From a virus: a stretch of DNA of 64,000 nucleotides. This document shows positions 2,092 to 3,052 of this stretch, piece after piece (the stretch's first letter is position 1; each line of letters begins with the position of its first letter). Location: positions 32,001-96,000 of the IMG/VR virus record IMGVR_UViG_3300047312_000028; one strand, given 5' to 3'. A program made the position numbers and the translations under genes. The notes below the pieces were generated by a model that was given only the letters and a program-made list of their open reading frames with translations, did no database searches and was not told the origin of the DNA.

Positions 2092-2099
2092 CATAAATA
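2092..2099 (+). promoter_or_regulatory. T4-type late promoter (CATAAATA) upstream of porB
   Basis: The same 8-mer precedes many structural genes in this window. The T4 late consensus is TATAAATA. Confidence 0.7.
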
Positions 2100-2125
2100 C
2101 GTGATACACCCCACAAGGATACAAT

Positions 2126-3052
2126 ATGAGTCTTGAAAAAATTACGATATCTCCCGACCTCTACGACATTATGCCCCCTGAGTATCAGGAGCTTGTCAGG
2201 AATGCCACCTACGGAAAAGAAGATCGTGGTTGGAAAGATATAGGTAATAAGAAAGAGTTGATTGAAGCACATTCATTATGCGCCGGGTGCCCAGAGTCGA
2301 TGGCATTCAGATATATCCTCGCTAGTCTCCCCAATCCCGCTGATACAATCATGGTAGGTTCTACAGGTTGTACCAGTCTTGTATTCCCAATGGTCGCTCT
2401 CCACAACATTCACTCCCTCTTCGGCAACCAAAACGCAGTCGCCTCAGGACTCAAACGTGCTTTAACTGTTAGGTTCCCTGGACGTATAAAAGACGTTGTG
2501 GTGCTTGCAGGTGATGGAGCGACGGTTGACATTGGTTTGGACATGACACTGCAAGCCTGGTTTCGCCAGGAGAAGTTTACGACGATTTGTTTTGATAATG
2601 AATTGTATGCGAACACTGGTGGGCAGGAATCTGGGCTCATGCAAAAAGGATTCGTAGCGAAGATGGCACCAGTTGGAAAGTTGTTCGATAAGGTGAGACT
2701 GCCAGAGATCGCCAGAGAGTCAGGATGCCATTTTGTTGTGCAGTGTACAGTGAGTAAGCCATCACTCGTTGAACGTGTCGTGCGTCAAGCGGTACTTGTA
2801 GCCCGTGAGATCGGACCAACGTATCTTCAACTCTACACACCTTGCATTCTCGAAATAGGAAAGAATAGTATGGAAGGCCTTCAGGAAATGCGCGATGCAG
2901 AGAAGCCAACCGAGCGTTTCGCCATGAAGGAATATATTAGTGAAGCAGCAAAAGAATTGCTAGCCGAAGTGGCAGTGAAAGATAAAGAACGCAAAGCTAC
3001 AAGATTGGCAGCACAAAATTCCACAAGTGTAACAGTGCCGGCACAAATCTAA
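2126..3052 (+). CDS. porB: pyruvate:ferredoxin oxidoreductase beta subunit (TPP and [4Fe-4S] binding), Nitrospira-type
   Basis: CAGCPE, STGC and TPC cysteines; TPP motif GDG-x-DNELYANTGGQES. From recall it is very similar to Nitrospira PorB (YGKEDRGWKDIG, AWFRQEKFTTICFDNELY). Confidence 0.9.
   Translation: MSLEKITISPDLYDIMPPEYQELVRNATYGKEDRGWKDIGNKKELIEAHSLCAGCPESMAFRYILASLPNPADTIMVGSTGCTSLVFPMVALHNIHSLFGNQNAVASGLKRALTVRFPGRIKDVVVLAGDGATVDIGLDMTLQAWFRQEKFTTICFDNELYANTGGQESGLMQKGFVAKMAPVGKLFDKVRLPEIARESGCHFVVQCTVSKPSLVERVVRQAVLVAREIGPTYLQLYTPCILEIGKNSMEGLQEMRDAEKPTERFAMKEYISEAAKELLAEVAVKDKERKATRLAAQNSTSVTVPAQI

Follow-up and report, generated by a model that had tools for sequence, protein, structure and literature searches.

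A host-derived, probably PorB-type beta-subunit gene behind a predicted late promoter in the genome of a putative T4-like Nitrospira phage

In soils, in waters and in treatment plants nitrite oxidation is carried out by Nitrospira, which use the reductive TCA cycle for the fixation of CO2. The closest described phages are the T4-like Nitrospirota phages of Lake Baikal, populations VP_99 and VP_1723, published by Coutinho et al. (2020; Microbiome 8:163; PMC7678222). According to the published description they carry a ferredoxin oxidoreductase homologous to PorB of N. defluvii, the epsilon subunit of a 2-oxoglutarate:ferredoxin oxidoreductase (OGOR), an Fe-S biosynthesis protein, an acyl-CoA desaturase and a ferredoxin. 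The Baikal authors are described as reading these as metabolic genes which act on the reductive TCA cycle and modulate dark carbon fixation, and as likening them to the known modulation of host metabolism by phages (PMC7678222). An earlier reading of the DNA analysed here, made from the sequence only, stated that no example of such a gene had been described. This statement has to be withdrawn, since the gene class was published for the Baikal phages. The gene is absent from the text of two later papers on nitrifier viruses (PMC11849493, PMC13147460), and a tblastn search of the GenBank phage collection gave nothing but remote matches in unrelated records, all of them under 34% identity.

The other system with which the locus can be compared, as an analogy of logic only, is psbA of the cyanophages, coding for the D1 protein of photosystem II. 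In both cases what the phage has copied is a single cofactor-binding subunit from a host complex of several subunits for energy or carbon metabolism, and in both cases the copy is highly conserved and would be useless without its host partners. The enzyme and the pathway differ, and rapid turnover is established for D1 and not for PorB; to our knowledge it has not been demonstrated for any five-subunit 2-oxoacid:ferredoxin oxidoreductase (OFOR) that the beta subunit turns over faster than its partners.

The window, i.e. the whole stretch of 64,000 nucleotides which was analysed, consists of bases 32001-96000 of a virus record of 176,325 bp (G000; IMGVR_UViG_3300047312_000028), for which CheckV gives a completeness of 100%. 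The phage has a GC content of 45.6% and encodes T4-like virion proteins (homologues of gp2, gp4, gp48, baseplate wedge proteins, tail sheath, tail tube, scaffold and adaptor), homologues of gp43, gp44, gp45, gp46, gp47 and gp55, and also a DNA ligase and RtcB. Compared by published description it resembles the Baikal phages (GC about 47%) in being a T4-like myovirus with a Nitrospira-derived PorB homologue and an Fe-S cluster biosynthesis protein. It differs from them in that the complete 176-kb genome is available, that near-identical pieces of it occur in soil metagenome runs, and that its set is limited to the beta subunit, an A-type carrier and TusA, with no epsilon subunit, ferredoxin, NifU or desaturase found. 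As far as that description goes, the genome is thus a complete, soil-associated member of a published gene category, with the smallest set of genes. The present analysis adds the context of the late promoter, an analysis of selection, the clade specific to phages, the locus for spare beta subunits in the host and the variable subunit sets among related phages. The features of the window are collected in Table 1.

Table 1. Positions in the window of the beta-subunit gene, its surroundings and its possible companion genes.
Feature	Position	Strand	Basis
tRNA array, six tRNAs	449-2087		ARAGORN
Family-2 glycosyltransferase gene, near the TusA-like gene	12884-13651		
ClpP-like protease gene, near the TusA-like gene	13594-14238		PF00574, E=5e-30
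TusA-like sulfur-carrier gene, 80 aa	14606..14848	+	PF01206, E=1e-11
tRNA-Val(GAC), final gene of the array and upstream neighbour of the beta-subunit gene	2014..2087	+	ARAGORN
CATAAATA, T4-type late promoter motif, 27 nt 5' of the ATG	2092..2099	+	sequence
AAGGA ribosome-binding site, 6 nt 5' of the ATG	2115..2119	+	sequence
PorB-type beta subunit, 308 aa, of a five-subunit 2-oxoacid:ferredoxin oxidoreductase	2126..3052	+	domain, structure and residue matches
Convergent gene, last of the minus-strand unit 4430->3049	3049..3663	-	no PHROG match
Long-tail-fibre-like gene (N-terminus of PHROG, E=6e-8)	3670-4224	-	PHROG match
CATAAATA of the minus-strand unit 4430->3049	4462-4455	-	
CATAAATA, late promoter motif before the head-tail adaptor gene	60891..60898	+	
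Head-tail adaptor gene, followed by the Fe-S carrier gene	60914-61873		
A-type Fe-S cluster carrier, IscA/ErpA-like, 105 aa	61883..62200	+	PF01521, E=8e-21

The beta-subunit gene is an uninterrupted ORF of 308 codons. It matches PF02775 (TPP_enzyme_C) with E=5e-17, and among solved structures the beta chain of a pyruvate:ferredoxin oxidoreductase (9bt4_C) comes first, with E=1e-23; the beta chain of oxalate oxidoreductase (5c4i_C) also matches, with E=3e-18. The scores against the NCBIfam PorB model and related models, 105-108 bits, are far below the cut-off of 405. From these matches the protein is classified as a divergent beta subunit of the five-subunit type and not as a classical four-subunit one. 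In an alignment (A1) of both beta paralogues the cysteines C52, C55, C82 and C240 and the motif G129-D130-G131...N158 are invariant. In a study of Aquifex, GDG...N was assigned to the TPP site and four cysteines, including a CxxC, to the third (proximal) [4Fe-4S] cluster (PMC10052474); the phage subunit is accordingly predicted to bind TPP and one [4Fe-4S] cluster. The intact PorB of the sequence-only reading, with its Fe-S cysteines and TPP motif, is borne out by these marks as a PorB-type beta subunit, and the closeness to Nitrospira PorB stated there is confirmed by an amino acid identity of 85-91% to the first beta paralogue (beta1) at 80 loci of Nitrospira and Nitrospirota genomes. To the second paralogue (beta2) the identity is only 41-46%. 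When the copy in a Nitrospira operon is taken as the representative of the Hydrogenobacter/Aquifex-type five-subunit PorB, the two proteins are 88% identical and of equal length, and they share GDG...N and the four cysteines including the CxxC. In contrast to the host PorB, annotated in Nitrospira, Leptospirillum and Nitrospina, the phage gene is encoded alone, with the codon usage of the phage and behind a predicted phage late promoter, and the phage copies evolve faster (tip branches of 0.05-0.25 against 0-0.03).

On one side of the gene is the tRNA array and on the other are fibre-like genes and those for ligase and RtcB, so that its neighbours on both sides are viral. Flanks of phage tRNAs and phage fibre genes had been claimed earlier; the tRNAs are indeed upstream, but the downstream part of the claim holds only in part, since one of the three genes in the minus-strand unit from 4430 to 3049, which converges on the beta-subunit ORF, is fibre-like and the other two have no informative match. 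The stop codons of the converging genes overlap at 3049-3052 (TAA of porB at 3050-3052, TAG of its minus-strand neighbour at 3051-3049), and a terminator-like site was not found between the two genes. As both convergent units have a CATAAATA promoter and no terminator was found between them, late transcripts would be expected to collide, and transcription from the two sides of porB could interfere. On the other side of the gene one unitig of the soil run X3 has 33 other bases in place of the 210 bases at 1834-2043, which make up most of a small zinc-ribbon-like ORF (1772-2023) upstream of tRNA-Val. This is an insertion/deletion polymorphism beside the beta-subunit gene.

A host-like gene in a virus record from metagenomes may be an artefact, either a chimeric assembly of host and phage or a recently captured host gene which decays as a neutral passenger. 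The base composition does not fit a chimera: the GC3 of the gene is 0.442, as in the phage (mean 0.464+-0.054) and unlike the Nitrospira copies (0.57-0.87). The junctions recur in independent assemblies. In L001, a contig of 68.6 kb, the gene follows the same tRNA-Val and is itself followed by the same fibre-like genes, ligase, RtcB and RNase H, and in the IMG/VR contig L005 it comes directly after tRNA-Val(GAC). The protein of the window is 92% identical to that of L001, while the neighbouring proteins are 27-71% identical. Soil metagenome unitigs of 95-100% identity cover parts of the stretch and two of them span the 3' junction; the 5' junction is not bridged by the short, low-depth soil unitigs of four runs, which is the sole weak point; nothing was found that speaks for an artefact. 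Coverage across both junctions, a check proposed earlier, is thus obtained for one of them. It should be noted that in L005 (positions 73-5944) an array of 20 tRNA genes and a tmRNA-like gene, ending with tRNA-Val(GAC), lies directly 5' of the beta-subunit gene.

Decay is contradicted by the intact frame with all motifs present and by the pattern of substitution. Between phage copies dN is 0.07-0.165 and the synonymous differences are saturated (pS 0.75-0.92), and the proteins nevertheless keep 81-92% identity. A numeric dN/dS was dropped, as saturation of the synonymous sites affects all phage-phage and all phage-host pairs; from low dN at such sites it can only be said that the ratio is far below 1. 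In 70 host sequences 257 columns have a conservation of 95% or more; the phage keeps 240 of them, and the changes are mostly conservative or located in the C-terminal tail. A careful maximum likelihood tree places the proteins of the window, L001, L005 and L119 and four metagenome proteins from short contigs in a clade of their own (UFBoot 94, SH-aLRT 99), nested among Nitrospira beta1, and FastTree agrees; the phage tip branches are several times as long as those of the hosts. A single clade of all ten phage sequences, as FastTree and a quick tree suggested it, was not retained, since the careful tree supports eight only, with the protein of L116 (P0038) as a weak sister of the clade and that of L118 (P0039) placed elsewhere. 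A chimera is ruled out and the reading of the gene as artefact or passenger, to which we give next to no probability, is already refuted. The proposal that the phage bears a host-derived metabolic gene has stood up to the comparison, which puts the gene inside Nitrospirota beta1, and to the selection analysis, in which there is no relaxation: as judged from the sequences it is a genuine phage gene, taken from a host and maintained by strong purifying selection. From the similarity of the gene Nitrospira is also the probable host of the phage.

The T4-type late promoter is a TATAAATA-like element located shortly before the start of late genes, and it is used with gp55, the late sigma factor, and gp45, the sliding clamp. 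The T4 proteins find homologues of both in the phage genome by tblastn (E=1e-20 for gp55, E=8e-20 for gp45). The sequence YATAAATA is present 26 times in the genome, and 17 of these sites are 4-50 nt 5' of the start of a gene on the same strand, where 0.95 would be expected; for permuted 8-mers the rate upstream of gene starts is 10%. Such sites precede the homologues of gp2, gp4, gp48, baseplate wedge, sheath, tube, scaffold and adaptor, and the motif before the beta-subunit gene is, as had been noticed from the sequence, shared with these structural genes. The identical CATAAATA stands before the gene in L001, and CCTAAATA in L005 and L116. Directly upstream of the beta-subunit gene no sigma-70-like site was found. 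Late expression of the gene is a prediction which is well supported by the sequence.

The substrate of the enzyme is the part of the assignment which needs most care. In the Nitrospira genomes the operon with beta1 has the order delta (CO_dh-like)-alpha-beta-gamma-epsilon (ferredoxin-like), and each genome has the second paralogue, beta2, in a separate operon. With 85-91% identity the phage protein is orthologous to the beta subunit of the operons with a CO_dh-like delta and a ferredoxin-like epsilon. In Nitrospira sp. CG24C (L106:5263-8547) the second OFOR operon appears to consist of beta2-gamma2-alpha2 only; with the queries used, delta and epsilon were not detected between these genes.

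In Leptospirillum a cluster forABGE-orf2-orf3-porABGED was assigned by similarity to the assayed enzymes of Hydrogenobacter (H. thermophilus) (Levican et al., PMC2607301). Two complete genomes of our Nitrospirota sample, G023 and G031, have the genes alpha2-beta2-gamma2-epsilon2 and, after 1.0-1.35 kb, alpha1-beta1-gamma1-epsilon1 with an orf89-like gene behind them; the latter is followed by delta1 in G031, and in G023 a delta gene was not found with the queries used. The beta1 orthologue of this Leptospirillum-like cluster is 77-78% identical to host beta1 and is located in the second (por) half. Because the cluster matches the forABGE-orf2-orf3-porABGED arrangement, beta1 can be regarded as the orthologue of PorB, and by this transitive orthology with Leptospirillum porABGED it is quite probably a subunit of pyruvate:ferredoxin oxidoreductase (POR). 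The alternative is that the phage protein works by the same mechanism in a different enzyme, i.e. as ForB of OGOR, so that the carboxylation of succinyl-CoA and not that of acetyl-CoA would be supported. This would agree with the fact that in Aquifex aeolicus the order delta-alpha-beta-gamma-epsilon, which is that of the host beta1 operon, belongs to OGOR, while the PFOR order is epsilon-delta-alpha-beta-gamma (PMC10052474). Gene order was tried as a marker of POR or OGOR and rejected: DABGE, EDABG, ABGED and BGEDA can all be converted into each other by cyclic rotation, and for this reason the agreement with Aquifex is given little weight. Against ForB are the position of the beta1 orthologue in the por half of the Leptospirillum cluster and, in the published description of the Baikal phages, the match of the viral homologue to N. 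defluvii PorB, which agrees with POR (PMC7678222). It is also at variance with the lack of a delta subunit in the OGOR of N. gracilis, as reported in the Nitrospina genome paper (PMC3578206), and in the operon-2 type of one Nitrospira genome; the former again agrees with POR for beta1. For N. marina the assignment as POR or OGOR was left open by Bayer et al. (PMC8115632). We consider ForB unlikely and continue with POR.

A beta subunit cannot act alone. The sequence-only reading had found no other por subunits in the window, and this is now extended: by tblastn with host proteins neither the window nor the rest of the 176-kb genome has an alpha, gamma, delta or epsilon OFOR subunit. Profile searches of the phage genome found no ferredoxin or NifU, and tblastn found no desaturase. 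Two other genes may belong to the beta subunit. One is the A-type Fe-S carrier, which is 65% identical to a carrier just upstream of a spare beta1-beta2 tandem in Nitrospira genomes and which we take, by this resemblance, as a companion. The other is the TusA-like gene, a possible companion, whose product is 48% identical to TusA in the OFOR cassette of L119.

Related phages have subunit sets of different size. Among the T4-like contigs L118 has beta1 alone and L116 has beta1-NifU-beta2 downstream of the major capsid gene. In L119 (positions 164-8743) there is a row delta-alpha-epsilon-beta1-NifU-beta2, then HIT, fatty-acid desaturase, GT2, TusA and Fe-S_biosyn, a gene content which matches that published for the Baikal phages as far as it is described (PMC7678222). 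L119 thus has nearly the whole enzyme and genes for cluster assembly; gamma was not seen. A beta1 and beta2 tandem, in some cases with alpha, was also observed in the IMG/VR contigs L006-L012, which are T4-like with a GC content of 32-38%. Their proteins group in a clade of their own, with strong support, which falls outside the Nitrospira sequences from freshwater and soil, and the hosts are possibly marine nitrite oxidizers.

The hosts themselves have something similar. Several Nitrospira genomes contain, besides both full OFOR operons, a separate beta1-beta2 tandem; it is present in 4 of about 30 beta1-bearing Nitrospirota genomes in the sample. Away from the operons, beta1 and beta2 accompanied by an Fe-S carrier were seen in L107:8062-13003 (Nitrospira sp. 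CG24D), L050, L083 and L085-L089. The A-type carrier is 0.06-1.4 kb upstream in eight of nine tandem loci (seven of eight distinct ones, as L050 and L107 overlap), whereas a search of 7 kb around operon copies detected no such carrier in those examined. L107 has a peroxiredoxin gene about 2.6 kb 5' of beta1, in a neighbourhood of ordinary chromosomal genes. Spare beta subunits with a cluster carrier are the combination common to host and phage, and of the indirect support for a replacement role this shared combination would seem to us the best. One may go further and suppose that the beta subunit of oxygen-tolerant five-subunit oxidoreductases is a consumable part which is replaced in place, that Nitrospira keep a locus of spare parts for this, and that the phages copied the kit (beta1, with or without beta2, and an Fe-S carrier or NifU) and express it late. 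We regard this as a tentative idea and rather doubtful. If it were true, host and virus alike would keep a dark CO2-fixing enzyme in repair by a cycle like that of D1.

Taken as a whole, the data are best explained if the gene is an auxiliary metabolic gene for the POR beta subunit in a T4-like Nitrospira phage, expressed late to replenish the host complex, a model which in our estimate has a somewhat better than even chance of being right. According to the model an ancestral phage acquired the beta subunit from the five-subunit pyruvate:ferredoxin oxidoreductase of its host, an enzyme of the oxygen-tolerant Hydrogenobacter type, and the phage lineage has since kept this subunit under strong purifying selection. 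By gp55-dependent late transcription the subunit would be expressed alongside the virion genes and, because it cannot work by itself, would assemble with the alpha, gamma, delta and epsilon subunits of the host. [quoted passage not shown] The additional genes for subunits and for Fe-S assembly in related phages (delta, alpha, epsilon, NifU, beta2, Fe-S_biosyn) argue for a working enzyme. Against the idea of a labile beta subunit, which was part of the sequence-only reading, counts the description of the five-subunit enzymes as oxygen-tolerant (PMC8115632). Retuning of the host enzyme by the phage subunit had also been suggested; it is unlikely, because so many of the host-conserved positions are kept and most changes are conservative.

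The phage subunit might instead displace the host beta subunit and thereby take the complex over, either to inactivate it and shut down CO2 fixation or to run it in the oxidative direction, which would give reduced ferredoxin and acetyl-CoA for phage synthesis. A single subunit predicted to be expressed late and apart from its partners would suit such a role, and so would the few substitutions which are specific for the phage clade (Q48 to A/S/P, K217R, N221Q and the C-terminal tail). Most of these changes are conservative, though, and all cofactor-binding residues are kept under strong purifying selection, for which a mere blocker would have no need. The Fe-S assembly genes which accompany the beta-subunit gene, and the alpha, delta, epsilon and beta2 genes of the relatives, also point to a working enzyme. 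A takeover is in our view improbable, and replenishment of the host complex is preferred.

The case adds to the published category a complete genome with a minimal, beta-only configuration and a defined late promoter, and it adds related phages with graded subunit sets together with a matching spare-subunit locus in the host. With these in hand the hypothesis of repair or replacement is directly testable. A strongly selected phage subunit of a key carboxylating enzyme suggests that the infection depends on continued dark carbon fixation, and that the beta subunit is what limits the enzyme once expression of the host genes stops.
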